Origin: an uncultured Spirochaetales bacterium
Lineage (GTDB): Bacteria > Spirochaetota > Spirochaetia > CAYRYS01
DNA length: 64,000 nt
Reading direction: 5' to 3'
Assembly: GCA_964428555.1 (NCBI GenBank)
Contig: CAYRYS010000004.1
Location: 1 to 64,000 of the forward strand
Part shown: piece by piece, positions 7,122 through 53,275 of the stretch
How positions within the stretch are numbered: position 1 is the first letter of the stretch
How the letters are laid out: every line of letters starts with the position of its first letter
Made by a program: the position numbers and the translations under genes
The notes under the pieces: model-generated
The model's database searches: none
Told to the model about the DNA's origin: nothing
What the model saw: the letters and a program-made list of their open reading frames with translations, nothing else

Positions 7122-7191
7122 TTGCAGCCTAAGTATACAGAACAGATAGCCCAAGCATCTTATACTGATCATGCAGCACAGGAGGTGTACC

Positions 7192-7656
7192 ATGAAAACA
7201 CAGATATATTCATCTCCAATCGGAATGCTTATAATAGGCATGAATATAGAAGGAGCTGTTGTAAATCTGCAGCTGGTTGAAGGTCTGGAACATTCCGAAA
7301 AACCGGACGCCTCTTCTCAGTTCCTCCGGGTTTTCCAAGAGCTTAATGAGTATTTTGCAGGTTTGAGAAAAGTATTTACTATACAGACTTCAGCTTCAGG
7401 AACAGATTTTCAAAAAAGAGTTTGGAAACAGTTAACTACTGTTCCATACGGCGAAACCATCAGTTATTCGCAACTCGCACAAGGAATTAACAACCCCTAT
7501 GCAGCACGGGCGGTGGGGAATGCATTAGCTGCAAACCCCATTCCGATTCTCATTCCATGCCACAGAGTTATTACTGCTTCAGGCAAGATAGGAAACTATG
7601 CACTGGGTGCTGAGAGCAAAATGTTATTGCTGGATTTAGAGGGCAGAGACAAATAA
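7192..7656 (+). CDS. ogt: Methylated-DNA--protein-cysteine methyltransferase
   Basis: Active-site motif IPCHRVI and the HTH-like region PYGETISYSQLA are present. I chose the ATG at 7192, preceded by AGGAGGTG, over the 7171 ATG. Confidence 0.8.
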   Translation: MKTQIYSSPIGMLIIGMNIEGAVVNLQLVEGLEHSEKPDASSQFLRVFQELNEYFAGLRKVFTIQTSASGTDFQKRVWKQLTTVPYGETISYSQLAQGINNPYAARAVGNALAANPIPILIPCHRVITASGKIGNYALGAESKMLLLDLEGRDK

Positions 7657-7657
7657 G

Positions 7658-12920: not shown

Positions 12921-14354
12921 ATGATTGAGAATTTACAACAAGTTACCAAGGGCATAGTTACTGCTGAAGTTAAAGGTAAACTCATGCTCGGTATACGCAC
13001 AGGTATGACCGGACGTGCATTTGCAAAAACAAAGCTCATTGAGCTAAAACGCAGCAAAGGCCTCGTAATACAGGAAAATAGAGTAGATGAATGGCAGGCA
13101 AGTGAAATCCAGGAATTTAATAATGAGTCCTACCTATTCGGTCCATACTATGAAGGCGAAAGTCTTTCCAGTGTTCTATCAAAAGAACACACTGCTCCAC
13201 TTGAGGTAATTAAGCGCTTAGTAAAAAACTATCTCCTTTTAAAGGAACGGAAGTTTTACATGCCCACACCACGTGGAAACAGTCTGTTTTTTCTTAAAGA
13301 CGAGGGCATACTCTTTTTACCTGACAAAACAATGCAGGAAACAATTTCATCGCTTACACCGGAAGAGCGGATGGAATTAATTGATAAAATAAACCATCCA
13401 GATTATGCTGGTGAAATTAATATATCCTACTTCCTTGCCGCAGTAACATACAAGCTCTTAACAGGAGACTATCCCTTTACCGGTGAATCGGAACTGCACC
13501 TCCACCAAAGAATACGTACAAGCACACCACTGCCTGCAAGATATCTGCGGCCTGAAATTAAGCAGGAAGTATCGGACAAGCTCAATTCAATATTTCAGGA
13601 GCCCATTCCTCTGGATGATTGGGAGCCGCTGCTTGATGAGTGGGAAAGCCATGGTCTCTTTCGGGAAGTCTCAAACCAGGAAAAGCAGGAGATAATACAG
13701 GAAGGGCTGAAACAAAAGCAGACAAAAGAACGGAAGGAGATGGTCTTTACCTTTCTCAAAACGAAATGGAAAGGTCTATTAGCAAGTATTGCTTCTGCAG
13801 CATTTTTAATTTTCCTTATTACAAGCATTATTATTATCATGCTTGAGCCGAGAGCAACCCGGGGAATGACATCCTATCAGGTTGTGAATACATATTTTTC
13901 CAGTATAAACGACATGGAATTCGACGTATTAGAAGACTGCTTAGACAGGGGAGTCAGGAGAAACCTGGTCGAACAGACAACAAACATGAATGTATTTTCA
14001 AAGATCCGCCAAGGATACGAGGGGGTTACAGGTATTGTTCCCGCGGAAAGCTGGCGGAACGACGGAATGCCTGAAATTGACAGAAACCTATTGATCTACG
14101 GAATAGCAAACCTGGAAATTACCCGGGAAAATGAAACCACCTATCTTGTGGAATATGAAAAATGGGAACCAATCTCTACCCCTCAAGCAGACCCTGAAGA
14201 CACACATATCCTCTGGTTTCAGGGATACAACAGGGTTGAGCGTTTTCACCTCGGACAGGACGGAGAGTATTGGGAAATTCGGGGAATTGAAGTTTTAGAA
14301 GATGAAGAAATCCTGGATAGTGTTCCCTGGCTTGAAGAAGGAGGAACCGAATAA
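12921..14354 (+). CDS. Hypothetical single-pass membrane protein with a degenerate protein-kinase-like cytoplasmic domain
   Basis: AGGAG RBS. Cytoplasmic part carries an eukaryotic-like kinase C-lobe remnant (INISYFLAAVTYKLLTGDYPFTG, like DxWSxGvxxYEmLtGxpPF) but no VAIK/HRD/DFG motifs. A TM helix (LLASIASAAFLIFLITSIIIIML) precedes an extracytoplasmic domain of about 170 aa. Confidence 0.5.
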   Translation: MIENLQQVTKGIVTAEVKGKLMLGIRTGMTGRAFAKTKLIELKRSKGLVIQENRVDEWQASEIQEFNNESYLFGPYYEGESLSSVLSKEHTAPLEVIKRLVKNYLLLKERKFYMPTPRGNSLFFLKDEGILFLPDKTMQETISSLTPEERMELIDKINHPDYAGEINISYFLAAVTYKLLTGDYPFTGESELHLHQRIRTSTPLPARYLRPEIKQEVSDKLNSIFQEPIPLDDWEPLLDEWESHGLFREVSNQEKQEIIQEGLKQKQTKERKEMVFTFLKTKWKGLLASIASAAFLIFLITSIIIIMLEPRATRGMTSYQVVNTYFSSINDMEFDVLEDCLDRGVRRNLVEQTTNMNVFSKIRQGYEGVTGIVPAESWRNDGMPEIDRNLLIYGIANLEITRENETTYLVEYEKWEPISTPQADPEDTHILWFQGYNRVERFHLGQDGEYWEIRGIEVLEDEEILDSVPWLEEGGTE

Positions 14355-17363: not shown

Positions 17364-17915
17364 CTAGTGATAGCATATATCCCTGCTTATTACGCCGCTG
17401 TCCACATATTGAAAATCAGGATCAATTTTCTGCTGAGATACTACGCCTATCATATAATCTTCGGTATTTTGTAATAGATAGTTCCACAGAAATCTATCCT
17501 TACCCGTAAAGGCTCCGCGCCCTTTAATGCATATAGGTATTTCAAACTCCTTCAATGCCTGAGGAAGTCCGAATCCTAATGCTTTCCCGTACGACTCTTT
17601 TAAAGTCCAAATCCGGTAAAAAATATCAGCCTTTTCCCGCGCAGGGGCATTGTTCAATACGGCTTGTTCATAATCTGTCAGATATTTTGCCAGGGACGAA
17701 AAATCGATTATACGTATTTTTTCTATGTCACAGCCTAAAGTGCCCGAGCCGAGAGCACATACAACACGGGCATCAGAGTGAGCAAGAGAAAAAGACAGGG
17801 AAGAATTTACTATATAAGGTTTTCCCTTTCCAGTGGAGCGCAATGTATTTTCATCCAGAATAATATCAAACTCTTCCTTTAGCGCATGGTATAACAGTGC
17901 ATATGCTGTGAGCAT
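17364..17915 (-). CDS. 4'-phosphopantetheinyl transferase, Sfp type (ORF as called from first ATG; likely N-terminally longer, see findings)
   Basis: GKGKPYI...SLSHS, GCDIE, WTLKESYGKALG are the three PPTase motifs. Immediately downstream of the NRPS gene. Confidence 0.75.
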   Translation of the reverse strand: MLTAYALLYHALKEEFDIILDENTLRSTGKGKPYIVNSSLSFSLAHSDARVVCALGSGTLGCDIEKIRIIDFSSLAKYLTDYEQAVLNNAPAREKADIFYRIWTLKESYGKALGFGLPQALKEFEIPICIKGRGAFTGKDRFLWNYLLQNTEDYMIGVVSQQKIDPDFQYVDSGVISRDICYH

Positions 17916-18052
17916 TCTATTTTTATCTTCTGAATATCTGAATGAAGTATATTTGTTTCTTTTATTATGGGGTAATACTGAAAGCAGGTATTCAATAGAA
18001 TTTGAGGATACCTTTTCTAACAGTCCACTGGTAAAAACACGGGTTTTAGTAA

Positions 18053-18784
18053 TTATTTCGTTTCCTGTATTGTCTTACCTATTAAATCTATAATTTCTTC
18101 AGGCGCAAAGGGTTTTGCCAGAACTCCGGCTACTTCCATTTCTTTAAATTTGGTCAATGTTTCAGATTCTTCCTTCGCATAGGCTGTAATGACAATAGTA
18201 GGTACAAGTTTTCCAAGGGATTTTAACTTCAAATATACCTCAAGACCATTGAGTTCTGGTATTCTTACATCAAGAATCAGCAGCTCAGCACCGTTTTCTA
18301 CAACATGCTGTACAGCGTCATATCCTGTTTGAGCGATCTCAACCTGATATCCCTGCTCTTCCAGTAAATCCTTGAGAGAATCTGCGCAGCTTACATCATC
18401 TTCAACAAGCAGAATATACCCGTTTGGACAAATAGATTTGATAACAGAAAAAAGCACCTCTGTTTCAAAAGGCTTTCGGAGCACCTCTAAAGCACCGTGT
18501 TCCATTGCCTGCTCTAAAAGCTGTTCAACTTTATACCCTGTCATCATTACTACTTTACATTCAGGAACGTGTTTCTGTATTTCAAGAAAACTGTCAACTC
18601 CGTTTTTTCCGGGAAGCTTTACATCCATAAAAATAAGATCATAATGGGCATTCTGCGCCATCTCAATAGCTTCCTCTCCTGAAGGTGCTACATCTGCATT
18701 ATACCCGTTTATCTCTAAAATATCTGCTAATGTTTCAGCAAGATCAATATTATCATCTACAATTAAAAAGCGCATATTCATCAA
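18053..18784 (-). CDS. Response regulator with two tandem receiver (REC) domains and no output domain
   Basis: REC1: LIVDDNIDLAETL...DLIFMDVKLPGKNG. REC2: ILLVEDDVSCADSL...LLILDVRIPELNG...K. AAGGA RBS. Confidence 0.8.
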   Translation of the reverse strand: MMNMRFLIVDDNIDLAETLADILEINGYNADVAPSGEEAIEMAQNAHYDLIFMDVKLPGKNGVDSFLEIQKHVPECKVVMMTGYKVEQLLEQAMEHGALEVLRKPFETEVLFSVIKSICPNGYILLVEDDVSCADSLKDLLEEQGYQVEIAQTGYDAVQHVVENGAELLILDVRIPELNGLEVYLKLKSLGKLVPTIVITAYAKEESETLTKFKEMEVAGVLAKPFAPEEIIDLIGKTIQETK

Positions 18785-18852
18785 TCCTTGTCCAATCTCT
18801 TTAATACACAGTATCGTTTATATACCAATTAAAAGTCAATTCTTTCAGTGTA

Positions 18853-21800
18853 TTAGTTTATAAATTTCACCTCCCTACAATGGGCTAACATGCGTTTAAA
18901 ATGATCTCTCTCAACAGCAGGCCAGTGAAATCCCAATTTTGAAAGTAATCGGTTTGTATAGTCAGCTTTTACTAAGTATCCTGTCATATGGGGATTATCC
19001 AGTATATGCGAGTGTAGAATAAGGTTTTGGATATATGGATATATCTCCGGATTCCTGCTTTGCGCATAGAGAAGATCATAGAATTCTTCAATTTCCATAG
19101 TTTCTATTTCTTTTCCGCACCTCTTGAGAAAAGAGCCAAGGTCATACAAACTCAGCGTATTCGGATTTACAATGTGAAAGCATGACTGTATTTTCTCTAG
19201 TGGATTCGCGATTAGGCGGGTAACGGCTTCTGCTGTTTTATCAACAAAAGAAATATCAAATACCTTGTGCTTAAGGTTCGGAAAAGCCTTTAGTTTTATA
19301 TAGGACTGTAGCGCAGTATAAAAGGCATTCTCCCTAATATTCTGCTGAAATATTCCGGTCTCAGAGTCAAACATTATGTTTCCGACTCTGAAGATTACAT
19401 ACCGTTTTCCCTCTAATGCCTTTTTACGTATCAAGTCTTCACCAGTAATTTTTGTATGCACATAATGATTGTCAGAATTCTCCTCAGCATTGTCATATTC
19501 AGTAAAAAAAACAATATCATCTTTCTGCTTCATATGAGCTGTGCCTACACTAGTGGTAGAAATATGATACATATCTTTTTGCTTCCCAGCTTCCGCGAAT
19601 TTCAGGATATGAGAAACTGCAGTTACATTTGCTGCATAAAATTCCTCATATTTTCCATAATGTTTAACTAGAGCAGCTGAGTTGATAATACAATCTACTG
19701 TGTTTGCTAGATAATCATACTCTCTGCATCCCATATCCGGCTTTGCAATATCTCCCTGATAAACGTAGAGACGGCCGGCATATTTTTTGGTTAGATTTTC
19801 TCCGAAATAATTATGAAAACTGCTGCAAGCTCTCTGTATAGGGGTTTCCGCATTTTTCTCCCGAACAATAAGGTGTACTTTTGCTTTTGGAAATTCTTTC
19901 AATACCTCTCTGGTTAAGTAGGCACCTAAGAAACCGGTAGCTCCTGTTATAAGAATATTTGTATAATTAGCTGTATGAAATACTGGAGCAGCAGCGGAAA
20001 CACGACTATTGTATTCTCTCTGCTTAACACCAATAGCCTGGTAAATCTGATTCTCATCCTTAAAATCGTGGGCCTTCTTTCTTAACCGTGTTATTGCAGA
20101 TACCATCTCAATATTCAGCTTTTTCATATGCAGAGCAAGGCTCTCCGGTGTCTCATATTCGAATATTGCATTTAATGAAAGCCGGTATTTTTTTGAAAGC
20201 TCAGCATGAACCTGCACTGCCTTTATTGAGTCTCCTCCTATCTCAAAAAAGTTTTCATAGATACCGATCCGGTTAAGTCCGAGAACATCTTCCCAAACCT
20301 CTATAATGCATTCCTCGCATTCATTTCTAGGAGAACAGTACTCAACACCCGGCCCTCCAGTACCACTAATATCAACAAGCGCTTTTCTATCGATTTTTCC
20401 GTTTTTTGTGACAGGAAATTTCTCAAGGGGAACAATCACTGAGGGCACCATATAACTAGGAAGCGCAGCAATTAGGCTGTTCCGTATTTCTTGTATTGAC
20501 CCATTAAGTACACCTGTAACATACGCTGCAATGTATTGATTTCCATGTTTATCTTTTTTTGCCATTACCAATGCATTTTCAATGGATGGAATAGTTCTTA
20601 GAGTGTGTTCAATCTCACCAAGTTCAACCCTGTTACCCCGGATTTTCACCTGATTATCAATCCTGCCTAAAAATTCGATTGTTCCGTTTACCAGCCACCT
20701 GCCAAGGTCCCCTGACCTGTATAGTTTCTTATCTTCAACAAAGGGATTTTCCACAAAGCGTTGTTTTGTTAGTTCTGTGTTATGGTAATACCCAACACCA
20801 AGCCCGGCGCCCCCAATATACAGTTCCCCGGGAGTACCAATAGGTACAGGATTTTTGTAGGCGTCTAATACATATATTTCATGATTATGAATAGGCTTCC
20901 CGATTGACGGCTTTTTCGTGTACCGGTTATCGGTACGAACCAATTGACTCGTTGAAAAAACAGTTGTCTCAGTTGGGCCATAGAGATTATATAAGGAAAA
21001 AGGCAGTGTATGCTCAGGAAATTCAGCAAGCTCATCCCCGCCTGTTAAGAGAACACGAAGCTGTGTATTTTCGCGCTCCCAAGATAGGGAGAGAAGGCGG
21101 TTTGTTATTGGCGAAGGTTGAAAAGTTATTGTGATTGCATTTGCCCCGAGCCAATGCTGAAGGTCCTGTGGACTTAAACGCACCATGGACGGAGTAATAT
21201 ACAATGTAGCACCGCATGTAAGTCCAGGCCACAGCTCCAGTGCCATTGCATCAAATCCAGGAGAAGCAGCAAGTGTCATCCTATCTGTATCAGAGACTCG
21301 GTACTCTGATCGATAAAAATGCAGGAGGTTCACAAAGCTATTATGAGAGATCTCTACACCTTTCGGGTGCCCTGTAGATCCGGAAGTATAGATTATATAA
21401 GCAGGGTCATTGCTTTTAACATTACTCGTAAAAGAAGAAACTTCGCCCAGAGTATTTTCATCATCCATAATAACTGGATCAATATTCTGAAATATATGAG
21501 CATCCTGTTTAAAGCAAAGAGCAGCCTCAGCCTTACTGTTTTCAAGGATGTACTTTACCCGTGCCTCTGGGTACTCCCGGTCAATGGGGAGATAAGGTAT
21601 TCCGTTCTTCATTACTGCAAGTATGCTTATTACAGTATAAATGGAAACATCAGCAAGCACTAAGACAGGCTTTGTTTTATTTGTAATCCTTTGCTTTAGG
21701 ACTCCAGCAAGATAATTTGCACGTCTATCCAGCAGTCTGTAGCTTATTTCCGTATTCCCTTGCACTATCGCGGTTTTTTCCGGAAAACGCTGCACAGCCT

Positions 21801-24800
21801 CCTGAAATAAACTAAGAATTGTTAAATTTTCTCCTTCTAAATACTCTGGTTTTTTTAGTCCTTGAAATTCTTCCAAGAGGAGCTTCTTCTCTTCAGTACT
21901 GATACAAGGAAGCTCGGATAATTTCCTATCAGGCGCTTGCGTGCTCAGCTCCAACATAGATATAAAGCGCTGAGCAATGAGGAACACATACTCATCAGGA
22001 TATATATTCTTATTATACAGAAATCGGATCCTTAACTCATTCTCAGGCAATATCTCAATATTGAATGAATACTCTGTCTGTTCAAAAGCAGTGTAAGAAA
22101 GAACCTTTGCCCTCCCTGCATTACCGATATACTCATGGCCGATTAGAGGAGTTTCACTATCATAATTTTCAAATCCATAAACGTGCTTAACTACATTCTT
22201 GCCGAACATGCTGTTTATTTTGTACAAAGGATAAAATTGGTGCTCAGTTCGAATTTCTGCAGCAGCTGTTCTTATACAAGAAGAAACACTAGCCTCCGGA
22301 TCCGCATCCACCCGTACAGGGAGAATATTAATACAGAGTCCTGCTATTTTATCCATGCCTTCTACCTCTGGCGGTCGTACTGTTGACACAGCTCCAAAGA
22401 CAGCTTCTTCTGTTCCTGTACTCTTGGCAATCAGCAATCCCCAAATAGTCTGCATCACAATATTTAGGGTAGTCCCAAAACTCTTGGCTAATTCCCGAGT
22501 GCGGCCTGACAATTCCGGAGAACAGCGAAACTCCTGCTGCCTTGGTGCATACTCAGTATCCCCATGATAAAATCCCGGTATTTCAGATGCTTCTCCTATT
22601 CCCTTTAAATATTCTCTCCAGTATTTTTCACTGTTTTTATACCTTTGCTTTGAAAACCATTTTTCATAAACAAGCAATGACGGACTAGGCTCATACCCTT
22701 TATGACTTCCCACTATCCGGTTTAAAAGTTCATCCACTATCTTGAACATACTCCATCCATCAAGAATAATGTGATGAAAACAGATTAATAACCCATAGCA
22801 GCCTTCTCTTCGTTTCTGTATCCGCACTCGGAACAAGGGCCCCCTGGCAAGCAAAAAAGGGGCTTTTCTCTCATTTTCCAAAATCTGCTTCCATAGCTCT
22901 TCTTCAGAGGCAGATTCAGAGTGATCATATTCCTTTACATCCGGATCCACTCTGCGCAAAACTACCCTCAGCGGCTCAGTCAGATGATCAGAGAGAAAAA
23001 TACTCCGCAAGGCTTCATGTGTACGGTGAAGCTGTACCACAGCGTCTGTTACTTCAAACACATCAATTTCACCTTCCAGTATTACCTCCATAAGCTCAAA
23101 ATACGCTTTTGAATCAGGGTGTTTTACAGCCTGTACAAGCAGCCCCTGTTCCAGCGGAGTCAATTTCCCAAGCCGTTCAATTGAAGAAATCTCAACCTGC
23201 TCCTTTATGGCATTCCAATCTTCTCTGTGTAATCCAGGCAAGAACAGGTCCCCTGGAGTTGTCACCCTTTCCTGTTTTGTCTGCAAAAAACGCAGCACAG
23301 TTCTCAGTTCATTCTTAAAAGCAATTGGAAATACTGCCGGATCATTCACAGGAACTCCTTCAGCATGTATTTCAAAAAGCGTGTGCAGTTTACCTTCATG
23401 GATCCACGCATTTATAGAGAAAGGATAGGGTTGACGGTTTTGGCATGCAGAGGTTAGCCGCAATTCTTGCAGATCCAGCATTCTGTTGTCATTACCGGAA
23501 GCATCGATTTCTCCGAGAAAGTTAAAACTTATTTCAGGCATAATACTGGGAACTTCATTATTCTTAGACAGATACACAAAAGGCGCATACCAAAACCCTT
23601 TATCCGGCACCATGAGAAGCCGTTCTTTCACAGAAATCATATTTTCTTCAGGATTATGTAGGTACTGAAGAAGAAGAGGATAAAAACTGGTAAACCATCC
23701 AATGGTATCGCCGCAATCCAGGTCAAGGACATCCTCTCTACCGTGAGTTTCTTTCATAATGTAAATAGTATCGAGCTCCCCCCATTGATACAAAGCTCTA
23801 GATAAAAGAGTAAGCAGTACAGCTTCCATGGACATCCCATAGATCTGCTGGGCCTTCTGGGCTAATGAAGCTGTCTCATCAAAACTAATTTCTATTTCCT
23901 CAGAAAATACGGTACAGGACTTTCCAAACACCTGTTTATCGAAAAAAACGCACTCACCCTTTTCCGATAATTGTTTGTTCCAATATTCAATCTGCCAATC
24001 CACAACCCCGCTTTCCAATGTTGTATACAGTTTTTCTGTCCACCCCTTAAATGAAACACTTGATCGCTTCAAGGATGTATTAGGAGCGGACAATCCTTTT
24101 TCTATCATAACTTTCAGGATATTCCAGGACACGCTGTCAACACAAAGATGGTGAATACAAAGTTTTAAAAATTGGACACCATCTTGGTAATAGAGTTTGT
24201 ACCCCCCCACAGGACCTTGTGCAATATTAATCTTAGATGCCAGCTCATCCTCTTCCTGCCAAGGGACTATCATCTCAGTTCCTTCAGGCATTATCTGCTG
24301 ATAAAGCACTTCTCCTGTTTCCGTATTAAGGGGATACAAAGTACGGAGCGCTTCTTGGGTATCCACTATCTCCTGTAACACCCTCTGCAAGTCTGTAGGA
24401 TCTATTGGTTCAGCAAAGGAAAAGAGCGCTTCTTGTGCCCAGTAGTGCGGATTATTCAAGCGAAGGGAGGAAAACCATTTTTGAATAGAAGAAAGCCGGA
24501 ATGTCCCTGTCTCCTGTACAGTAACCGCAACTTCTCCTTCCGCAAGTGAATTGATCTTACCCGATAGTTCTGTAAGCACTGGAGCAGCAAAAACATCGGA
24601 TACTGTACACTTGTACCCAGACTCACGAAGAGCAGTACAGACCATAATGGCTTTAATTGAATCGCCGCCTATGTGAAAAAAATTATCATTTTTTTCAATA
24701 GAAGAAGCGCTTAGTACAGACTTCCATGCTGAAAATACTGCCTTTTCCTTTTTAGTAAGGGAAGAATAGCTGCTGGAACCAGAGATTTCATACTGACCCT

Positions 24801-27639
24801 GTCCATGCATACACTGTTTTGCCAAAGCCTTTCTATCTATTTTACCACTTTGGGTTCTTGGAAATTTTTCGGTATCATGAAAAAACCCGGGCACCATGTA
24901 TCCTGGGAGTTTTTCACTCAAGAGCTTACGTATTCCTTCTATAGATATTTCCTTATTTTGTATAAAAACGGCATGAAGCGAAAAGGTGCCTGTAGTTTCT
25001 TTAACAGGCACGACAACAGCATGCTGAATTTCAGAGAAGCCATGTAATGCAGCCTCAATTTCGCCGACCTCCACTCTGTGGCCACGGATTTTTATCTGGT
25101 TATCAATTCGCTGTATAAAACGAATATCGCCCCCGGGAAGTCTGCGGACAAGGTCCCCTGAACAGTACATCCGCATTTCCGGGAAATACGGATCCTGCAC
25201 AAAGCGATCTTGCGTAAGCTCCTCATTATTCACATACCCTAAACTTACCCCAAGCCCGCTAATACATAGCTCCCCTGACCAGGCCTCAGGTAATACTTTC
25301 CTGTATGTGTTCATGATATACACAATACTGCTTGGTTCAGGCTTTCCAATATTTACAATATTTGCTTTAAGATCATCCATTCCCAGCTGTTTCAAGGTCA
25401 CATAAATAGTTGTTTCTGTAGGTCCATATTGGTTTAGTATCCGTATATGAGAATACTTTTTTTTCCATTCAATAAGTGCAGCAGGAGTAAGTGCTTCTCC
25501 GCCTAGGATTACACACCTAAGAGACCGGCACTTGGCTTCTCCTGAAAGTAAATCCTGATTTACAACTCCGTAAAAAGATGAAGGAACTTGTGTAAATACC
25601 GTAACCTTATAAGCTTCAAGCAGATCTAAACAAGCAATAGGATCGGTTGTTACCGCCTTGGGCACAATCACAAGCCGGCCGCCGTACAGCAGGGGCGCGA
25701 ATATTTCCATAACAGAAGGATCAAATATGAATGAATGAAACATAGTCCAAACATCATTGCAGCTAATTCCGAGGGGATTATCAAAATGCAGTAAAAGGCG
25801 CACAATGTTCTGATGAGAAACAAGCACTCCCTTAGGTTTGCCGGTAGTTCCGGAGGTATAGATGATATATGCTCCGTTTTCAGGAGATAGCTGACTAGGC
25901 TCTGTACGGGCAGGCTGCTGAGATAAATGATACATATCTTCAATATCCACGGACATAGTATTTCCGAAGCCCTGACTTTTTTTGGATTTAATAAGGATTA
26001 CTGCGTTACTATCCGAAAGCATGTATTCAGCTCTGCGGCAGGGTGTTTCCGGATCAATTGGAAGATACACAGCACCTGCTTTTAGAACTCCAATAATGGC
26101 GAGGATCATTGGAATGCCGCGGTCTAAAGATATCGCAATAGTATCCCCCATAGCTGCCCCTTTTTTGTTCAAATACAAGGCAATGGCACTGCTTTTCCTA
26201 TCAAGCTCTTCATATGTTATGCTTTCATGCTCATACAGCACTGCTGTTTTCTGGGGATACATTTTTGCAACGGCTTCAAAGGCAGAGACAATTGTTGCAT
26301 TCAGAGGGTATCCGCTGTTGAAATCTGTTTTTTTCTTATAAGCAGCCAATTCTGTACTGCTAAGCAGTTCTAAAGAGGAAACCGGGGAATTGTATGCTTT
26401 CAAACCGCTCTTGAATAAGTTCATCATAACCTTAGGAATTGCCGCTATTTCCTGTTCAGAAAAAACCTCAGTCTGATAATCAATTTCAAACAGGATCCTC
26501 CCTGAGCCGTCCCTTTGGTTTACATGAATAACCAAAGGGGATTGCTCATATCCGTAGAACTGCCACTGATTGTTTATGTCACATTGGTTTTCCTCATATG
26601 AAAACACAATCTGCAGTAAATCAGAGTGTATTTCCTTCTTTTTCCTTAATTCCTCTAGTAGTGAGTCATAGGGATATTTCTGGTTCCGCAGCAGTGAAGT
26701 TATGTCAGCTGCTGTCTGTTTAACAATCTCGCTAAAACTATTATTTGGGTCTATACAAATATTATATGCCATAGTATTTACAAACATACCCGCTGCAGCT
26801 TTAGCAGAACGGCTTGTTCTCCCGTGGGTTGTTGTACCAACAATAAAGCGTTCCTTGTTTTGCCAATGCAGAATTAACACTTTCAACAGGGAAAAGAAAA
26901 CAGAATAAAGCGAACAGGAGTTCTCTGCACAATAGCGCTCAAGTAATTGTTTCTCTTCATAAGACAGAGCAGTTTCATAGCGGTCTGCTTTTGGAGAAGT
27001 ATATTCAGGGAAATCGAAAGGCTCAGGTAGATCATTAAGATGGTCCAGCCAATACTGTTTATTTTTTTCTGCCCGTTCTGTAGTTAAATACCTTTGTTCT
27101 TCCTCAATGAAAGAAGCATAATAGGTATTCCTTTTTCTATCAGGAAAATTGCCCGACTCTATCAATGAACAATAGTGCACATAAATTTCCTCTGCGAGCA
27201 GCTGAAAAGTCCAGCCGTCAGAGACAAGGTGATGCATTCTCAACAGGAAGCCTGATGAACCGTCCGCGTACTCAGCAGGAAAGACTGAGATGTAATTTGA
27301 AAGATCACAGTTATCGCCTGATGTACTAATTTTATGTATCCATTCTTTCTCTTCAGACAGAGAGTTCAGGATTATAGGCTCCCTGATATCATGCTTCTTG
27401 TAATCAGTAAAACTCTGTCTGAGACCGCTTTTATCTATAACAAACTCTACATTTAATGCCGAATGCAGCCTCAGAGTATTTTCTATTGCTTTTATGAGAA
27501 GCGGAAATTGTATTTCACAGGGAAAAGCTATTCTATAGGTTAATATGCAAAGCGCAGTATTAGGGTACTTCTGAGCAGAATACCAAATCCTTTTTTGTGC
27601 ATGAGACAAGTCTGTTAATAAACCATAATTACCTATCAT
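18853..27639 (-). CDS. Non-ribosomal peptide synthetase, 2928 aa, domain order C-A-T-E-C-A-T-R (terminal thioester reductase)
   Basis: Motifs in order: HHLVSDGW (C1, near nt 27220); SGTTGKPKG, NQYGPTETT and KIRGHRVEVGEIE (A1, near 25840); FFHIGGDSIKA (T1, near 24665); HHLCVDSVSW (E-type His motif, near 24140); HHIILDGWS (C2, near 22775); SGSTGHPKG and NLYGPTETT (A2, near 21385); FFEIGGDSIKA (T2, near 20235); ILITGATGFLGAYL (NAD(P)-binding R domain, near 19940). AAGGAAAG RBS. Confidence 0.9.
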   Translation of the reverse strand: MIGNYGLLTDLSHAQKRIWYSAQKYPNTALCILTYRIAFPCEIQFPLLIKAIENTLRLHSALNVEFVIDKSGLRQSFTDYKKHDIREPIILNSLSEEKEWIHKISTSGDNCDLSNYISVFPAEYADGSSGFLLRMHHLVSDGWTFQLLAEEIYVHYCSLIESGNFPDRKRNTYYASFIEEEQRYLTTERAEKNKQYWLDHLNDLPEPFDFPEYTSPKADRYETALSYEEKQLLERYCAENSCSLYSVFFSLLKVLILHWQNKERFIVGTTTHGRTSRSAKAAAGMFVNTMAYNICIDPNNSFSEIVKQTAADITSLLRNQKYPYDSLLEELRKKKEIHSDLLQIVFSYEENQCDINNQWQFYGYEQSPLVIHVNQRDGSGRILFEIDYQTEVFSEQEIAAIPKVMMNLFKSGLKAYNSPVSSLELLSSTELAAYKKKTDFNSGYPLNATIVSAFEAVAKMYPQKTAVLYEHESITYEELDRKSSAIALYLNKKGAAMGDTIAISLDRGIPMILAIIGVLKAGAVYLPIDPETPCRRAEYMLSDSNAVILIKSKKSQGFGNTMSVDIEDMYHLSQQPARTEPSQLSPENGAYIIYTSGTTGKPKGVLVSHQNIVRLLLHFDNPLGISCNDVWTMFHSFIFDPSVMEIFAPLLYGGRLVIVPKAVTTDPIACLDLLEAYKVTVFTQVPSSFYGVVNQDLLSGEAKCRSLRCVILGGEALTPAALIEWKKKYSHIRILNQYGPTETTIYVTLKQLGMDDLKANIVNIGKPEPSSIVYIMNTYRKVLPEAWSGELCISGLGVSLGYVNNEELTQDRFVQDPYFPEMRMYCSGDLVRRLPGGDIRFIQRIDNQIKIRGHRVEVGEIEAALHGFSEIQHAVVVPVKETTGTFSLHAVFIQNKEISIEGIRKLLSEKLPGYMVPGFFHDTEKFPRTQSGKIDRKALAKQCMHGQGQYEISGSSSYSSLTKKEKAVFSAWKSVLSASSIEKNDNFFHIGGDSIKAIMVCTALRESGYKCTVSDVFAAPVLTELSGKINSLAEGEVAVTVQETGTFRLSSIQKWFSSLRLNNPHYWAQEALFSFAEPIDPTDLQRVLQEIVDTQEALRTLYPLNTETGEVLYQQIMPEGTEMIVPWQEEDELASKINIAQGPVGGYKLYYQDGVQFLKLCIHHLCVDSVSWNILKVMIEKGLSAPNTSLKRSSVSFKGWTEKLYTTLESGVVDWQIEYWNKQLSEKGECVFFDKQVFGKSCTVFSEEIEISFDETASLAQKAQQIYGMSMEAVLLTLLSRALYQWGELDTIYIMKETHGREDVLDLDCGDTIGWFTSFYPLLLQYLHNPEENMISVKERLLMVPDKGFWYAPFVYLSKNNEVPSIMPEISFNFLGEIDASGNDNRMLDLQELRLTSACQNRQPYPFSINAWIHEGKLHTLFEIHAEGVPVNDPAVFPIAFKNELRTVLRFLQTKQERVTTPGDLFLPGLHREDWNAIKEQVEISSIERLGKLTPLEQGLLVQAVKHPDSKAYFELMEVILEGEIDVFEVTDAVVQLHRTHEALRSIFLSDHLTEPLRVVLRRVDPDVKEYDHSESASEEELWKQILENERKAPFLLARGPLFRVRIQKRREGCYGLLICFHHIILDGWSMFKIVDELLNRIVGSHKGYEPSPSLLVYEKWFSKQRYKNSEKYWREYLKGIGEASEIPGFYHGDTEYAPRQQEFRCSPELSGRTRELAKSFGTTLNIVMQTIWGLLIAKSTGTEEAVFGAVSTVRPPEVEGMDKIAGLCINILPVRVDADPEASVSSCIRTAAAEIRTEHQFYPLYKINSMFGKNVVKHVYGFENYDSETPLIGHEYIGNAGRAKVLSYTAFEQTEYSFNIEILPENELRIRFLYNKNIYPDEYVFLIAQRFISMLELSTQAPDRKLSELPCISTEEKKLLLEEFQGLKKPEYLEGENLTILSLFQEAVQRFPEKTAIVQGNTEISYRLLDRRANYLAGVLKQRITNKTKPVLVLADVSIYTVISILAVMKNGIPYLPIDREYPEARVKYILENSKAEAALCFKQDAHIFQNIDPVIMDDENTLGEVSSFTSNVKSNDPAYIIYTSGSTGHPKGVEISHNSFVNLLHFYRSEYRVSDTDRMTLAASPGFDAMALELWPGLTCGATLYITPSMVRLSPQDLQHWLGANAITITFQPSPITNRLLSLSWERENTQLRVLLTGGDELAEFPEHTLPFSLYNLYGPTETTVFSTSQLVRTDNRYTKKPSIGKPIHNHEIYVLDAYKNPVPIGTPGELYIGGAGLGVGYYHNTELTKQRFVENPFVEDKKLYRSGDLGRWLVNGTIEFLGRIDNQVKIRGNRVELGEIEHTLRTIPSIENALVMAKKDKHGNQYIAAYVTGVLNGSIQEIRNSLIAALPSYMVPSVIVPLEKFPVTKNGKIDRKALVDISGTGGPGVEYCSPRNECEECIIEVWEDVLGLNRIGIYENFFEIGGDSIKAVQVHAELSKKYRLSLNAIFEYETPESLALHMKKLNIEMVSAITRLRKKAHDFKDENQIYQAIGVKQREYNSRVSAAAPVFHTANYTNILITGATGFLGAYLTREVLKEFPKAKVHLIVREKNAETPIQRACSSFHNYFGENLTKKYAGRLYVYQGDIAKPDMGCREYDYLANTVDCIINSAALVKHYGKYEEFYAANVTAVSHILKFAEAGKQKDMYHISTTSVGTAHMKQKDDIVFFTEYDNAEENSDNHYVHTKITGEDLIRKKALEGKRYVIFRVGNIMFDSETGIFQQNIRENAFYTALQSYIKLKAFPNLKHKVFDISFVDKTAEAVTRLIANPLEKIQSCFHIVNPNTLSLYDLGSFLKRCGKEIETMEIEEFYDLLYAQSRNPEIYPYIQNLILHSHILDNPHMTGYLVKADYTNRLLSKLGFHWPAVERDHFKRMLAHCREVKFIN

Positions 27640-27727
27640 ATTTACTTTCCTTATTTAGAAAATAGATTTTTTTTACTTTTTTATATTTTTCCAAGCATCT
27701 CAGACTACGATTATTGAAGAAAGAACG

Positions 27728-27756
27728 TTGACATAATAAAGTCATCAACTTAAACT
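27728..27756 (+). promoter_or_regulatory. Putative promoter (TTGACA-17nt-TAAACT) for the solute-binding protein gene
   Basis: TTGACA at 27728..27733, 17-nt spacer, TAAACT at 27751..27756, about 30 nt before the RBS AAGGAG and ATG 27786. Confidence 0.3.
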
Positions 27757-27785
27757 GTCAATAAAAGATAAATAAAGGAGAAAAC

Positions 27786-28637
27786 ATGAATAAATCTATT
27801 CTCTCAATTCTTATCGTATTTATCGTTTTATCCATTGGAGCTTGTAACAGAACAAGCAATATTGAAGTTCAGGAGGTAGCTTCCCAAGAACAGGATGCTG
27901 ATTCGGGAAGTGAAGCAGAAACAGAAATTGAAACTCCGGAAATTCGAATATCCCCGGAAGACGAGCTTACTATCTATGCCCGTTCCGAATATGAACCCTT
28001 TATATACCTAGATGAAAATGAAGAAATGACAGGATTTGTTATTGAAGTAGAAGAAGCAATTCTCGAAGAGATGGGCCAGAATTATCGCTTTATCCCGTAT
28101 ACAGATAATCAACAAGCTTTGTTTGACGTAAAGGTCGGAACTGTACACGCCATATTAGCATGTACAAGAGATCCGATATTTGATGTGTATACGTTAAGTG
28201 ATACATACTATTCCATCACAGCTCCCCTCTTTGTGCGCAATGAAACCGAGAATATCGGAGGGGATAATCTTGAGCAGGTAATTGAAAGCCTTTCAGGCAG
28301 GACTGTCGGAGTACAAAGCAGAGGTGCAGAGGTGAGTTTTTTCCGTAGTTATCCGGAAATAGAGGTGCGGGAATACCCTACAGGTACAGTTGCAATGGAA
28401 GCGCTAGTAAATGGAGAGGTGGACGCTAAAATGGAAGTGCTGGAAAACGGATTATTCCTTGCTGAACAAAACAACTGGGACATTAAGCCTGTGGGCGTCC
28501 CGATTATACAAATTGAAACAGCAACCGGGTTTTACGCAGGGCTTGATGACAGTACTGTTGAACGGTATAACCAGGCAATGCAGATAGTTGTTGAAAACGG
28601 GACCTTTGACGCGATATATTCCAGATGGTTCGAATAG
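27786..28637 (+). CDS. Periplasmic solute-binding lipoprotein (family-3 / amino-acid-binding fold)
   Basis: Lipoprotein signal MNKSILSILIVFIVLSIGAC, acidic linker, then the SBP_bac_3-like fold. Sits immediately upstream of a Cache histidine kinase. Confidence 0.65.
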   Translation: MNKSILSILIVFIVLSIGACNRTSNIEVQEVASQEQDADSGSEAETEIETPEIRISPEDELTIYARSEYEPFIYLDENEEMTGFVIEVEEAILEEMGQNYRFIPYTDNQQALFDVKVGTVHAILACTRDPIFDVYTLSDTYYSITAPLFVRNETENIGGDNLEQVIESLSGRTVGVQSRGAEVSFFRSYPEIEVREYPTGTVAMEALVNGEVDAKMEVLENGLFLAEQNNWDIKPVGVPIIQIETATGFYAGLDDSTVERYNQAMQIVVENGTFDAIYSRWFE

Positions 28638-28724
28638 CAAATGTATCCGCCCTGCCTGAAAGGAACAAACTAATTAAACAAAGCATCGATATGGTCAAAA
28701 GTCATAGGGTTTTAAGAGGTATAT

Positions 28725-31004
28725 GTGAATATAAAAAGCAAGATTCGTCTCTTTATTATCAGCAGTCTAATTATCATCACTACAGTCGCCGGACTGCTCT
28801 ATGCTATTGTTGGAGCAAGGAGAATATCAGCAGAATCGAAGGAAAATGTTAATCTTATAGTTAGTAACTATGCAGAGATATTCAATGTGAATATGCAGAA
28901 CTACAAGCGGATCACTCAGGATTTTTCTGCCTCAGTTGTAGTTGGAACATACATTCCTGAAGTATTTGCAGAAGCCAGCCGATTGTATCCTGAGTTTGAG
29001 CATATCGTATATGCAAATCAGGAAGCCCGGATTCTCCATACCTATCCATATCGAGAAGATATCATTGGACGAAACATAAGTGATGAAGCATATTGGCAGC
29101 AAGCTATAGTATCGGGAGACACATACATATCAGAGATCAATACAGACTTTGGATACCCTGCAATCATTTTTGCTGCACCGGTGTTCTCTTATTTTCAAAA
29201 TGAAAGCGAACCGAATTTTCATGGAACCGTACTGGTAACCCTACCCCTAGAATACTTTCAGCAGCGCATACAGGAGATTACTATTGGTGAAACAGGTTCT
29301 GCTTTTTTGATCAATAGAAACGGGGAATTCTTGGGGCATACCGACGGATCAGAATTACCCACAGGGAACCTATCACAATGGAGTGAATATTATGGTTTTT
29401 CAGAGATTGAAGAATATTTAGACGGCAGCTACACAGGATCCGGGAATATTTACACACCGGAACAGCTATATCTATCTTTTCATCCTATCCCGGAAACAGA
29501 TTGGTTCCTTATCATCACTCAGCAGATGTCGGAACTACATAAAGACCTGTATAACACTATCCTTCTCCTTCTCATTATTTTTCTTATCAGCATAGGAATC
29601 GCTGCATTAGTTAGTAAGTATGCAGCAAAAAGCATTATTTCACCGCTTCAACAGAATCTTGATCTGCTAAAGAGCCTTGCCGAAGGAAAAACAGACTCGA
29701 GCAAAATACAATGGATGCAGCAAAATGATGAGTTTGGAGAGATTGCTGAACAATTTAATAAGGTCATATCAAACCTCAACACAATTGCTAAGCGTTTAGA
29801 TATTGACCTGCAGCGGGAAAAGCAGGAAAAAATCAGAACAGTATCAGCTCTTCATGATACTCAAGCGCGTTTTAAGGCAATTTTCAACCAGACTTTTCAG
29901 TATATATGGCTCCTCTCCCCGGACGGCGCAATACTCGAGGCAAATTCAACCTTTTTGAATTCTGCCGGTTTGGAGAGAAGCGGAATATTACAGATTGACT
30001 TTTGCAAAGCCCAGTGGTGGATCAACGAAAAGACAAAGTCCATTGTAACAAAAAACTTTAACGAAGCAAGGAACGGAATCCTGGTGCGTTTTGAAACAGA
30101 GATTCATGTCTCAGACAGTATTCATTCCCTGGACTTCTCATTAAAACCTATTTTTTTAGAGAACGACCCCAGTGAAGTTACATTAATTATAGCTGAAGGC
30201 AGAGACATTACTCAAAGAAAACAGATGCAGGCAGAACTTGAAAAGCATAAAAATCAGTTAGAAGTGCTGGTCCAAGAACGGACACAGGAACTGGAAGCAG
30301 CACAAGCTGAGCTTATAAAAAAGGAAAAGTTCTCAGTACTGGGCCAGCTTACCGCGATAGTAAGCCATGAAATCCGCAACCCCCTAGGTACGATCCGCAG
30401 TTCCGCATATATTTTAGAAAAACGTTCTGCAAAAGAAGATGAAAAGATAAACCGCGCTATTACAAGAATACAGAGGAATGTAATTCGCTGCGACTCCATT
30501 ATTGAAGAACTACTGGATTATACCAGAAACACGAAGGTGGAACTTGTTCAAAAGAATATTGATCAATGGATTCAAGACTTTATTGAAACCTATGAAAAAG
30601 CTGAGGGAATTCCGATCACCCTAGATCTCCACTCAGAAATGGATATCAACTTTGATCCTGAACAGATTCGAAGAGTTTTTATTAATTTAATTGACAATGC
30701 TGTACATGCAATTCAAGATATACCTGCAGAGAACGTGGATTCAAATTATATAAATATTAGTACAGAGAATAACGGAGATTCTATAAGAATACTAATATCT
30801 GACACAGGGTCGGGGATATCCAAGGAAAATAAAGAGAAGATTTTTGAACCGCTTTTCAGCACAAAGGGATTCGGAGTCGGACTTGGACTCCCGATTGTAA
30901 AACACATAATCGACCTGCATGCAGGAAAAATAGAACTGTATTCTGAAACAGAAAAGGGCACAACGTTTGTCATCACACTTCCAAAGGAAGGACCTGAGAT
31001 ATGA
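28725..31004 (+). CDS. Sensor histidine kinase (TM - Cache-like periplasmic domain - TM - HAMP - PAS - HisKA - HATPase)
   Basis: GTG start after AAGAGGT. H-box SHEIRNPLGTIRSS. G-boxes DTGSGISKENKEKIFEPLFSTKGFGVGLGL. Confidence 0.85.
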   Translation: MNIKSKIRLFIISSLIIITTVAGLLYAIVGARRISAESKENVNLIVSNYAEIFNVNMQNYKRITQDFSASVVVGTYIPEVFAEASRLYPEFEHIVYANQEARILHTYPYREDIIGRNISDEAYWQQAIVSGDTYISEINTDFGYPAIIFAAPVFSYFQNESEPNFHGTVLVTLPLEYFQQRIQEITIGETGSAFLINRNGEFLGHTDGSELPTGNLSQWSEYYGFSEIEEYLDGSYTGSGNIYTPEQLYLSFHPIPETDWFLIITQQMSELHKDLYNTILLLLIIFLISIGIAALVSKYAAKSIISPLQQNLDLLKSLAEGKTDSSKIQWMQQNDEFGEIAEQFNKVISNLNTIAKRLDIDLQREKQEKIRTVSALHDTQARFKAIFNQTFQYIWLLSPDGAILEANSTFLNSAGLERSGILQIDFCKAQWWINEKTKSIVTKNFNEARNGILVRFETEIHVSDSIHSLDFSLKPIFLENDPSEVTLIIAEGRDITQRKQMQAELEKHKNQLEVLVQERTQELEAAQAELIKKEKFSVLGQLTAIVSHEIRNPLGTIRSSAYILEKRSAKEDEKINRAITRIQRNVIRCDSIIEELLDYTRNTKVELVQKNIDQWIQDFIETYEKAEGIPITLDLHSEMDINFDPEQIRRVFINLIDNAVHAIQDIPAENVDSNYINISTENNGDSIRILISDTGSGISKENKEKIFEPLFSTKGFGVGLGLPIVKHIIDLHAGKIELYSETEKGTTFVITLPKEGPEI

Positions 31005-33079
31005 ATAAAGTAAAGGCAGATAGTAGCAAGGCTGTAAAACAAATATTAATAATAGATGATGACACTGACTTCGCGGAAAGCATAAGCGATATTCTTGAGA
31101 TGTATGAATATTCGCCTAGAATTGCCACAAATCTTGAAAATGCAGATACTTTGTTTCATGAATGTATCCCGGATGTCGTATTATTGGATATTCATATCGG
31201 AAATAAAAATGGTATTTCATTTATAGAGAAAAACATACACCAGTACCCTGACACCCTTTTTTTAGTAGTAACCGCTTTCGCTGGTGTGGAGTCAGCACTT
31301 GATGCATTGAAATCCGGTGCATACGATTATTTAAGAAAACCAATAAGCACTGATGATCTCCTCGCATCTCTTGACAGGTGTTTTGAAAAACTTCTCCTGG
31401 AAAAGAAAAACAGACAATCTGAACAAGCATTAATAAGACAGAATGAGCGGTTAGAAGAGGTTAACCGCAGGTTGAGAAATATTGTGGAATCTGCATCAAT
31501 TATAAATTCTGAGAATTCAATTAAAGAATCTATACATGCAATTCTTTCGGAATTCCATGCAAACTTTACCATAGATCGAAGCGCTATACTTTTCAACCAG
31601 CAAAAAGGATACACCATTTATACATATTCAGGTTCTGATTATAATTGGGTAGACTTGGATAATCTTGATCAGTTTCCAATTCTTAATCATGCTATTAGGG
31701 AAGATTACCGTATATTATCTGAATCAGAAAGACTATCATATGAGCCGTTTCATGATTTTTCAGGTCCGGTTTTGCTTCTTCCGTTAAAGGAAAAGGAAGA
31801 AACCCAGCTAGGAATGGTCCTTTTACATAGAGCCTCACAGAGATTTACCCAAATTGATATTGATATTGCCCGTGTTATGTGTTCACTTGCAGCAAGCGCG
31901 ATACTTAATTCAAGGTCACAGGAAGAGTTAAATAGAAAAGAAACAGTAATTCAGCAAAGCAAAAAAATGGAGGCAATGGGCAGGTTATCCAGCGGAATTG
32001 CCCACGATTTCAACAATATTCTAACTGGAATATTAGGATGCACTGAACTTCTCATAATGAATGCGAAGGAAGCGGACAAACAGTATCTGCATGAAATCTC
32101 ATGCGCAGTTTCACACGGCTCAGCCCTTACAAAACAGCTTCTTACATTCAGCAGACAGAAGGATACAGAGCCCGAGATAATAAATGTAAACACTATTATA
32201 TCTGCAATGGAAAATATTCTCACAATGCTCTTTGGAGATGAGGTAAATCTACATCTTGACCTCTGTTCTTCCGGCACAGAGGTAGAAATTGAGACAAACC
32301 AGCTTAAACGGGTAATTCTCAATATCGCGATTAACGCAAAAGATGCAATGGCAGGACACGGAGAGTTTTATCTGACCACTCGGTTAAAGCAGATATCTTC
32401 TGAAAACTCAAATGAATTTCCAGACCTTCAAACAGGCAAGTATGTTCAGATACTTTTTCGAGATTCAGGGCCTGGGATAGATAAATCGGTACTACCGGAA
32501 ATATTCGAGCCCTTCTTTACTACAAAGGAAAATGAACGCGGAACCGGATTAGGATTATCTACAGTGTTTGGGATTATAAAACGCAGCGGAGGCACAATAA
32601 CTGCGGAAAATGCTCCGGATTTGGGCGCACAGTTTTCAATCTTAATTCCAAAAGCACTTAAAGCTCCGAACAACCTTGCTATTTCTGAAATAAAAGAAAA
32701 ACCCGATTATACTGGTGTACATGCACTGGTAGTTGAAGATGATCCGGCAATTCGTAATATCATCATCAAAATAACAAATCTACACGGCATAACAACCCAG
32801 GCAGCACAAAACGGGATAGAAGCCCGGGATATTATTCTCGCTAACCCTAAGTCCTTTGATATTATTATTACAGATGTAAGAATGCCAAAAATAAATGGAT
32901 ATGAATTAGCTGAATCTGTATTCCGTATAAACACAGAGATAAAAATATTATTTATCTCAGGAAATTCTTTTTATCATCCTCCAGCGTTAGTCTCTGAAAA
33001 CAAAAACAACACAGCTCTGCTGCAAAAACCCTTTACCCAAGATGAATTGTTCATGAAAATATCTGACTTACTCTCCTAA
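31001..33079 (+). CDS. Hybrid sensor kinase: REC - GAF/PAS-like - HisKA - HATPase - REC
   Basis: N-terminal REC ILIIDDDTDFAESI...LLDIHIGNKNG. H-box SGIAHDFNNILTGILG. G2 box GTGLGLS. C-terminal REC ALVVEDDPAIRN...IIITDVRMPKINGYEL. The ATG overlaps the upstream stop (ATGA). Confidence 0.85.
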   Translation: MNKVKADSSKAVKQILIIDDDTDFAESISDILEMYEYSPRIATNLENADTLFHECIPDVVLLDIHIGNKNGISFIEKNIHQYPDTLFLVVTAFAGVESALDALKSGAYDYLRKPISTDDLLASLDRCFEKLLLEKKNRQSEQALIRQNERLEEVNRRLRNIVESASIINSENSIKESIHAILSEFHANFTIDRSAILFNQQKGYTIYTYSGSDYNWVDLDNLDQFPILNHAIREDYRILSESERLSYEPFHDFSGPVLLLPLKEKEETQLGMVLLHRASQRFTQIDIDIARVMCSLAASAILNSRSQEELNRKETVIQQSKKMEAMGRLSSGIAHDFNNILTGILGCTELLIMNAKEADKQYLHEISCAVSHGSALTKQLLTFSRQKDTEPEIINVNTIISAMENILTMLFGDEVNLHLDLCSSGTEVEIETNQLKRVILNIAINAKDAMAGHGEFYLTTRLKQISSENSNEFPDLQTGKYVQILFRDSGPGIDKSVLPEIFEPFFTTKENERGTGLGLSTVFGIIKRSGGTITAENAPDLGAQFSILIPKALKAPNNLAISEIKEKPDYTGVHALVVEDDPAIRNIIIKITNLHGITTQAAQNGIEARDIILANPKSFDIIITDVRMPKINGYELAESVFRINTEIKILFISGNSFYHPPALVSENKNNTALLQKPFTQDELFMKISDLLS

Positions 33080-37396: not shown

Positions 37397-37451
37397 TCCT
37401 CATTATGGACCAGGTGTAACCGGATTGACAACCCGGCAAATGCACACTAAT

Positions 37452-53174: not shown

Positions 53175-53275
53175 AATACATGCTTTCTCAAATCTGTAGA
53201 AAACTGTTTTGCATTTTTGCTCAAAATAGTTTATAAACTCCAATATACACACTCCCAAATTTGATAGGAGCATCC

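Follow-up and report, generated by a model that had tools for sequence, protein, structure and literature searches.

What a nonribosomal peptide synthetase (NRPS) gene of an uncultured Spirochaetales bacterium makes, and whether it belongs with the signalling genes around it, is the question raised by positions 1 to 64,000 of contig CAYRYS010000004.1 (GenBank assembly GCA_964428555.1), the stretch that we refer to as the window. The gene, at 18853..27639 on the reverse strand, is one uninterrupted open reading frame (ORF) with an ATG start and encodes a 2928-amino acid NRPS whose domain order we read as Cstarter-A1-T1-E-DCL-A2-T2-R (C, condensation; A, adenylation; T, carrier; E, epimerisation; R, thioester reductase; DCL, D-donor-specific condensation). 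We propose, with a little better than even confidence, that it is an N-acyl-D-Xaa-L-Leu-like aldehyde (or alcohol) synthetase functionally coupled to a phosphorelay. The proposed coupling follows from conserved synteny, and the proposed product from the subtypes and catalytic residues of the domains.

An initial annotation, made from the letters of the window, had assigned the architecture C-A-T-E-C-A-T-R, and Pfam, NCBIfam and every motif that it quoted agree with this assignment. Pfam detected three Condensation stretches, two pairs of AMP-binding and AMP-binding_C, two PP-binding domains and a C-terminal NAD_binding_4 domain (residues 2564-2805, E=4.5e-47), and the NCBIfam model for amino acid adenylation domains, TIGR01733, matched two stretches with 755.6 bits. 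The carrier and reductase domains, without which the proposed architecture would fall, were thus both found by Hidden Markov Model searches. The translation contains MHHLVSDGW (residues 135-143), HHLCVDSVSW (1163-1172) and FHHIILDGWS (1621-1630), together with two GGDS sites and GATGFLG. The carrier domains T1 (24535..24777, reverse strand) and T2 (20095..20337, reverse strand), assigned by Pfam and motif, both read GGDSIKA. The adenylation core motifs, the carrier serine in GG(D/H)S and a condensation HHxxxDG in each module, which define a modular NRPS, are all in place. The gene therefore encodes a complete, stand-alone dimodular NRPS with all catalytic residues present.

The initial annotation regarded this gene as isolated beside housekeeping genes. 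It is instead the centre of a cassette, spanning 17364..33079 in the window, that recurs in distant metagenomic lineages. Directly downstream of the NRPS, Pfam identified a response regulator consisting of two receiver domains (REC-REC) and no output domain (18053..18784, reverse strand); both receivers keep the acidic pair, the phospho-Asp, the Thr and the Lys. An Sfp-type 4'-phosphopantetheinyl transferase (PPTase; 17364..18056, reverse strand, in a 230-amino acid reading) lies two genes downstream of the NRPS. On the other side, and divergent from the NRPS, Pfam assigned a family-3 solute-binding protein (SBP) with a lipoprotein signal (…LSIGAC; 27786..28637, forward strand), a dCache-PAS-HisKA-HATPase sensor histidine kinase (28725..31004, forward strand) and a REC-HisKA-HATPase-REC hybrid kinase (31001..33079, forward strand). 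Composition gave no sign of the recent horizontal transfer that had been raised for the NRPS: its GC content is 0.410 against 0.421 in the rest of the window, and in strand-symmetrised tetranucleotide frequencies it correlates with the rest at 0.924, compared with 0.929 +/- 0.012 (minimum 0.912) for twenty equal-sized control chunks.

Relatives of the NRPS were sought at several depths. A word-indexed protein search with the NRPS returned nothing above ~34% identity and no relative of the same architecture, and an NRPS scan of genome contigs gave a single irrelevant fragment at 27% identity. The impression of an orphan gene left by the word-indexed search was overturned by an exhaustive HMMER search with T2-R against 1.84 billion cluster representatives, in which five collinear homologues with 31-36% identity were identified: P0124, P0125 and P0126, which are the three best non-self matches, and P0136 and P0158. 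All five are metagenomic proteins of 2875-2969 amino acids, segmented as Cs-A-T-E-DCL-A-T-R. The HHxxxD motifs of C1, E and C2, both carrier serines, the E-domain Glu and the R-domain triad are kept in all six NRPSs.

The surroundings are conserved as well. At three metagenomic loci (L006, L007 and L008), an SBP_bac_3 gene is read divergently from the NRPS and is followed by a dCache histidine kinase gene, and a ~240-amino acid REC-REC protein follows directly after the NRPS, with a PPTase next in L006. Behind the dCache kinase, L006 and L007 carry the REC-HisKA-HATPase-REC hybrid kinase, cut by the contig end in L007, and the L008 contig ends inside the dCache kinase gene. As far as they are sequenced, the gene order of these loci is that of window positions 17364..33079. 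Identities to the window proteins are 39-42% for the SBP, 39-40% for the dCache kinase, 36-43% for the hybrid kinase, 50-55% for the REC-REC protein, 32% for the PPTase and 33-35% for the NRPS. SBP orthologues in this identity range occupy the same position in L006-L009 and L042, the lipoprotein Cys being conserved in four of the five; L009 retains the SBP with different kinases. A metagenome scan with the SBP alignment found relatives at 21-32% identity only, none of them beside an NRPS. Searching with the dCache kinase yielded three further full-length orthologues, one of which lies in L042, a locus from a low-GC lineage (0.32). Here an NRPS remnant (6449..9036, reverse strand) comprises a C domain that starts at its HH motif, a single A domain and the C-terminal 59 residues of R (46% identity), a pattern that indicates internal deletion, and is followed by a single REC protein, a hybrid kinase and a REC-GGDEF-EAL protein. 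The last of these is a possible hint that the relay acts through c-di-GMP. The synthase gene is thus syntenic with sensor genes in L006, L007, L008, partly in L009, and in L042. At least four unrelated uncultured bacteria have this block of sensor-kinase genes, in whole or in part, around the NRPS.

The REC-REC family (240-255 amino acids) is itself widespread, with 45-52% identity in Anaerolineae, Chloroflexota, Planctomycetota and other metagenome-assembled genomes (MAGs). At L011 (335..6619) and L012 (7562..11696), from Anaerolineae and another lineage, a contiguous trio of sensor kinase, REC-REC protein and REC-HK-REC hybrid kinase (HK, histidine kinase) occurs without an NRPS. We know of no description of this trio. 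In the present clade the NRPS, plus the PPTase in the window and L006, is placed inside it.

We turn to the chemistry, beginning with release. The terminal R domain (18856..19992, reverse strand) is a thioester reductase of the SDR type, with GATGFLG, the Thr of ISTTSV and the Tyr/Lys of YVHTK. The Tyr/Lys pair on which a working reductase would depend is thus present, and the GxxGxxG NAD(P)H site and full triad of reductase-terminated NRPSs are found. Both the Thr/Tyr/Lys triad and GATGFLG align with the corresponding residues of Mru_0351, MxaA and AusA. The closest solved R domain is Mru_0351 PCP-R (PCP, peptidyl carrier protein; 6VTJ, PMC8024701) of Methanobrevibacter ruminantium, with ~360 residues aligned at 2.6e-39 and the triad kept; Mru_0351 is an archaeal multi-module NRPS, comparable in its T-R part alone. 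The initial annotation had proposed release as an aldehyde. A catalytically complete R domain agrees with this as far as reductive release goes, whereas the choice between aldehyde and alcohol lies beyond sequence and structure, which do not yet reveal what controls the extent of R-domain reduction (PMC8024701). A four-electron reduction to an N-acyl dipeptide alcohol of the leucinol type, an outcome that we think unlikely, would draw on this same point and on the MxaA and MxcG-type reductases, which score about equal to AusA against R, and the best structural relative, Mru_0351, gives no product precedent. The sequence itself offers no counter-argument to the alcohol; against it stand the characterised short R-terminated NRPSs from anaerobes, which gave aldehydes (PMC8518294).

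The two middle domains bear on a different fate of the product. The E domain (residues 1040-1500; 23140..24522, reverse strand), assigned from PDB matches and the reference set described below, is the best-matching query for 49 of the 50 positional E domains, and its top PDB matches are all epimerases, led by GrsA-E (6.5e-42) and followed by TycA, PvdL and TycB. The second His of HHxxxD (His1164) and the Glu of EGHGRE (Glu1297), the two catalytic residues of E domains (PMC8905534), are present. C2 (residues 1510-1950; 21790..23112, reverse strand; HHIILDGWS) is the best-matching query for 45 of the 46 post-E domains of the reference set, and in the PDB it matches the post-E C domain of BacC (1.5e-52), TycB1 (2.8e-47) and SrfA-C (1.5e-46), against only 1e-12 to 1e-17 for LCL domains. 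With a seemingly functional E domain ahead of a C domain of the D-donor type, the D-aa1-L-aa2 order of the initial annotation is supported.

The same annotation had considered pyrazinones. A free dipeptide aldehyde might cyclise and oxidise to a pyrazinone or dihydropyrazinone, as in aureusimine and the products of gut Clostridia, with the N-terminal C domain idle; we give this little credence. It has some footing in AusA, which among the named NCBIfam models comes nearest to module 2 and R and whose R domain is among the top PDB matches; the R-domain search also brought up many A-T-C-A-T-R proteins. AusA/AusB of Staphylococcus aureus resemble the window genes in being dimodular with R-domain release and a dedicated PPTase, but AusA (A-T-C-A-T-R), which makes pyrazinones, lacks the starter C and E domains, both of which the window NRPS has. 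The AusA equivalog NF047350 scored 1041.8 bits over residues 1521-2915 only, against a cut-off of 2500, so the window NRPS, by this measure, is not an AusA orthologue; AusA and MxcG are the nearest named NCBIfam NRPS models, and both fall far below their cut-offs. In each of the six family members, C1 has an intact HHxxxDG and falls among the starter C domains. By established chemistry, the conserved E and DCL pair would be purposeless if both alpha-carbons became sp2 and both stereocentres were lost, and an N-acylated amine cannot cyclise. The predicted N-acyl group and retained D-centre therefore disfavour a pyrazinone end product.

The N-terminal domain C1 (residues 1-440; 26320..27639, reverse strand) has an intact HHLVSDG and was ranked against 435 C-superfamily domains cut from 121 NRPS homologues of the word-indexed search. 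These were labelled by position alone, as N-terminal, post-T, between T and C (E), post-E or C-terminal. The top 14 matches of C1 are all either N-terminal, starting at residues 1-20, or directly behind a FAAL-like A domain. C1 scores 168-169 bits against the C-A-T-C-A-T-R proteins P0119 and P0070, with the Clostridium proteins P0082 and P0087 also near, and 132 bits against the starter C domain of lichenysin synthetase LicA, compared with 72 bits against LicA's own LCL domains and 97 bits for the best internal LCL domain. LicA/SrfAA (lichenysin/surfactin) share this starter type with C1, but work in long, thioesterase-terminated lines whose products are cyclic or long linear lipopeptides. Reciprocally, by BLASTP, C1 ranks 9-22 among the matches of N-terminal starter-like domains and ~300 among those of LCL domains. 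Its first core motif (SHAQKRIWY) begins at residue 12, leaving no space for a docking extension, whereas the N-terminal DCL-type domains of downstream subunits begin at residues 30-36. C1 thus groups with starter C domains and not with LCL or DCL domains, and the N-acylation that the initial annotation had drawn from an intact starter domain accords with this grouping; the use of an acyl donor is a prediction.

If C1 were instead fed an aminoacyl or peptidyl chain by an NRPS encoded elsewhere, the protein would be a subunit of a larger assembly line. The C3 motif of C1, MHHLVSDGW, does resemble the LCL consensus, and in a phmmer search of the PDB with C1 the solved starter domains rank a little below LCL and DCL domains, the entry 8F7F ('surfactin synthetase') behaving as a DCL-type domain and not as a starter. 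We nevertheless consider such a subunit very improbable, given the reciprocal ranks and the missing docking extension. There is no other NRPS or polyketide synthase ORF in the 64-kb window or in the flanks of the five homologues, which are likewise stand-alone proteins of the same architecture and size; the suggestion that the gene might be a fragment of a longer line finds no echo in them.

Substrate pockets were read from the ten Stachelhaus columns of a 354-domain A alignment, validated on lichenysin LicA (DAQDLGVVDK, DAFMLGMVFK and DAWFLGNVVK). The codes that the initial annotation had aligned by hand were reproduced exactly, DPMTIGQIYK for A1 (residues 441-950; 24790..26319, reverse strand) and DALFLGLVFK for A2 (residues 1951-2430; 20350..21789, reverse strand). 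As had been supposed, A1 fits none of the reference codes: it has at most five of the ten positions in common with any of the 354 reference domains. Its nearest whole-domain neighbours are of the Thr type (DFWNIGMVHK, ~40% identity), and its pocket, with T278, Q322 and Y331, has no charged residue except the invariant D235/K517 pair. The substrate is probably a polar uncharged amino acid. An exchange of A1 for that of a Thr-type donor was ruled out, as the A1 domains of P0124 and P0125 are built on the same scaffold. A2 proved to be hydrophobic, as expected, with Leu codes (DAWFLGHVVK and DAWFLGNVVK, ~42% identity) as its nearest whole-domain neighbours, which places it in the Leu clade. A MAFFT reading of A2 as DALQLGLVFK, a Gly-like code with Q at 278, came from two compensating spurious gaps, and ungapped alignment to LicA-A3 gives F. 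The A2 code is identical in the window NRPS, P0124 and P0125, although their A2 domains are 41-51% identical, and canonical Leu codes occur in A2 of P0126 and P0158. In contrast, the A1 codes differ in all six NRPSs of the family. A conserved pocket for residue 2 and a variable one for residue 1 would fit a fixed warhead, or P1 residue, with lineage-specific tuning of the other position.

Taken in order, the proposed synthesis would run as follows. The PPTase would prime T1 and T2, A1 would load residue 1, and the starter domain C1 would N-acylate it with an acyl-CoA or acyl-ACP (ACP, acyl carrier protein) from primary metabolism. The E domain would then epimerise the acyl-aminoacyl thioester, and the D-donor-specific C2 would join acyl-D-Xaa to the Leu-like residue loaded by A2. 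Finally, R would use NAD(P)H to set free N-acyl-D-Xaa-L-(Leu-like)-al, which it may reduce once more to give the alcohol. The Cs-A-T-E initiation modules of the tridecaptin type offer a precedent for a first residue that is acylated and then epimerised. The coupling to the phosphorelay could take either of two forms: synthesis may be under the control of the relay, which would respond to a periplasmic ligand, or that ligand may be the product.

Several observations weigh against this proposal. Besides the PDB ranking of C1 given above, C1, E and C2 agree with the reference sets in only 64-70% of the columns that are at least 85% conserved there, where the references' own mean is 91-93%, a contrast inflated by the many near-duplicate sequences in the reference sets; with such divergence, altered activities of the three domains are possible. 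The FNYLG motif of the E domain reads FNFLG (F1374), the Tyr being present in 48 of 48 references, and in the mutagenesis literature on GrsA this Tyr reportedly matters for E activity. Because the window NRPS, P0124 and P0125 have the FNF variant in common, we read it as a trait of the clade and not as decay. The specificity of A1 cannot be predicted from its code, the cassette has neither a FAAL nor an ACP gene, and L010, the locus of P0158, is without the signalling genes. Neither a DNA-binding output domain nor an exporter is encoded in the cassette, so it is the conserved synteny that argues for a mutual influence of relay and NRPS. That the gene is a decaying relic without current function, as the divergence of its domains and the deletion of the NRPS from L042 while the signalling genes persist might suggest, is scarcely credible, since the frame is open over 8.8 kb, six lineages keep the catalytic residues, A2 domains of only 41-51% identity have the same pocket, a PPTase is co-located, and a second MAG ('Spirochaetia bacterium' according to NCBI) carries the protein with 3 amino-acid differences.

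The nearest characterised counterparts of the proposed lipodipeptide aldehyde synthetase are found in gut bacteria. According to one report (PMC8518294), gut-bacterial NRPSs make N-acyl dipeptide aldehydes, namely the family of Guo et al. 2017 and ruminopeptin of Ruminococcus; the C-A-T-C-A-T-R enzymes described there are, like the window NRPS, dimodular, with an N-terminal C domain, a terminal reductase, a nearby Sfp-type PPTase and anaerobic hosts. In the word-indexed search, the nearest relatives of C1 belong to such proteins, and identity to them is ~29-34% over the aligned regions. Unlike them, the window NRPS has E and DCL domains, from which a D-configured residue 1 is predicted, and it occurs in a Spirochaetia MAG with conserved SBP, kinase and REC-REC surroundings. 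Two-component genes also accompany a reductase-terminated dimodular NRPS at L003 (494..11925), in a different combination: there the genes around P0119, a more distant C-A-T-C-A-T-R relative, encode a PPTase, a HisKA_7TM kinase and a REC-HD-GYP regulator. A literature search on this cassette, on the A-domain codes and on NRPS aldehydes of Treponema or spirochaetes found nothing specific.

LuxP/LuxQ, CqsA/CqsS and RpfF/RpfC/RpfG are signalling loci in which a synthase is combined with its sensor. As in these, the cassette sets a small-molecule synthase beside a periplasmic binding protein and/or hybrid kinases; unlike them, its synthase is an NRPS, its relay has a REC-REC protein with no identified output, and any ligand-receptor relation is putative. 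A bolder possibility, which we regard as speculative and on balance unlikely, is that the cassette forms a self-contained peptide-aldehyde autoinducer circuit in Spirochaetia and related uncultured bacteria. The aldehyde would leave the cell by export or diffusion, the lipoprotein SBP and the dCache kinase would detect it, the signal would pass onward through the REC-REC protein and the hybrid kinase, and the variable A1 pocket would give lineage-specific 'dialects'. If true, this would be a previously undescribed NRPS-made peptide-aldehyde system.

Short N-acyl peptide aldehydes are potent covalent-reversible inhibitors of proteases and of the proteasome, and the characterised bacterial peptide aldehydes from anaerobes come mainly from Clostridia. 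As a predicted coupled synthetase, the locus would bring into this class a Spirochaetia MAG and a D-configured residue 1. Its apparent inheritance as a unit with a specific multi-kinase phosphorelay suggests a testable link between a natural product and signalling, and gives the trio of sensor kinase, REC-REC protein and hybrid kinase a possible functional handle. The compact set of 2 to 6 genes from uncultured organisms could be expressed heterologously.

Two details of the cassette concern its expression. The PPTase has the ACPS domain PF01648 (9e-17) and the N-terminal half of the pseudo-repeat that marks the Sfp type; its best equivalog match is AusB, at 65 bits against a cut-off of 225, and the HetI cut-off is also missed. 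Its conserved N-terminal half (17916..18056, reverse strand) lies upstream of the first ATG, with no in-frame ATG, GTG or TTG there, and the 230-amino acid NCBI model in the sister MAG starts at ATA (18056..18054), overlapping the TAA stop of the regulator as ATAA. The lack of a standard start codon and this overlap imply a non-canonical start codon or termination-reinitiation coupling. A sigma-70-like match, TTGACA-17-TATTAT (11/12; 27733..27761, reverse strand), lies in the intergenic region between the divergent genes, ~95 nt ahead of the NRPS start; it is the best match in 14-29 kb, as a consensus match only, and the regional total of matches does not exceed that of shuffled sequences. Rfam detected no RNA families in the window. 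The downstream genes proC, proA and proB were considered as pathway genes and set aside as housekeeping neighbours, as all three score above their canonical equivalog cut-offs and none occurs in the homologous loci.

Elsewhere in the window, a 1112-amino acid ORF (46807..50145, reverse strand) fuses the alpha and beta parts of a 2-oxoacid dehydrogenase E1, a lipoyl domain and a FabH-type ketoacyl synthase (KAS) III. This unusual fusion could feed fatty-acid synthesis with branched-chain or short acyl primers. Next to it lies an aldehyde dehydrogenase gene (45292..46689), and an E1_dh gene is also found near the related NRPS in L003. No Pfam match was obtained for five forward-strand ORFs of 267-477 amino acids (6027..7121, 12921..14354, 37425..38693, 52023..53174 and 53261..54064), and 12921..14354, the only one of them also scanned against NCBIfam, had no match there either. 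A 1482-amino acid protein (38794..43242, forward strand) fuses a CheB methylesterase, a CheR methyltransferase, about five PAS domains and HisKA_2/HATPase, and is followed by a methyl-accepting chemotaxis protein gene at 43407..45281. Near the window end, a YhgA-like (Transposase_31) gene at 62813..63697 (reverse strand) lies in the part with the highest GC content (0.485-0.495 over 60001-63000).

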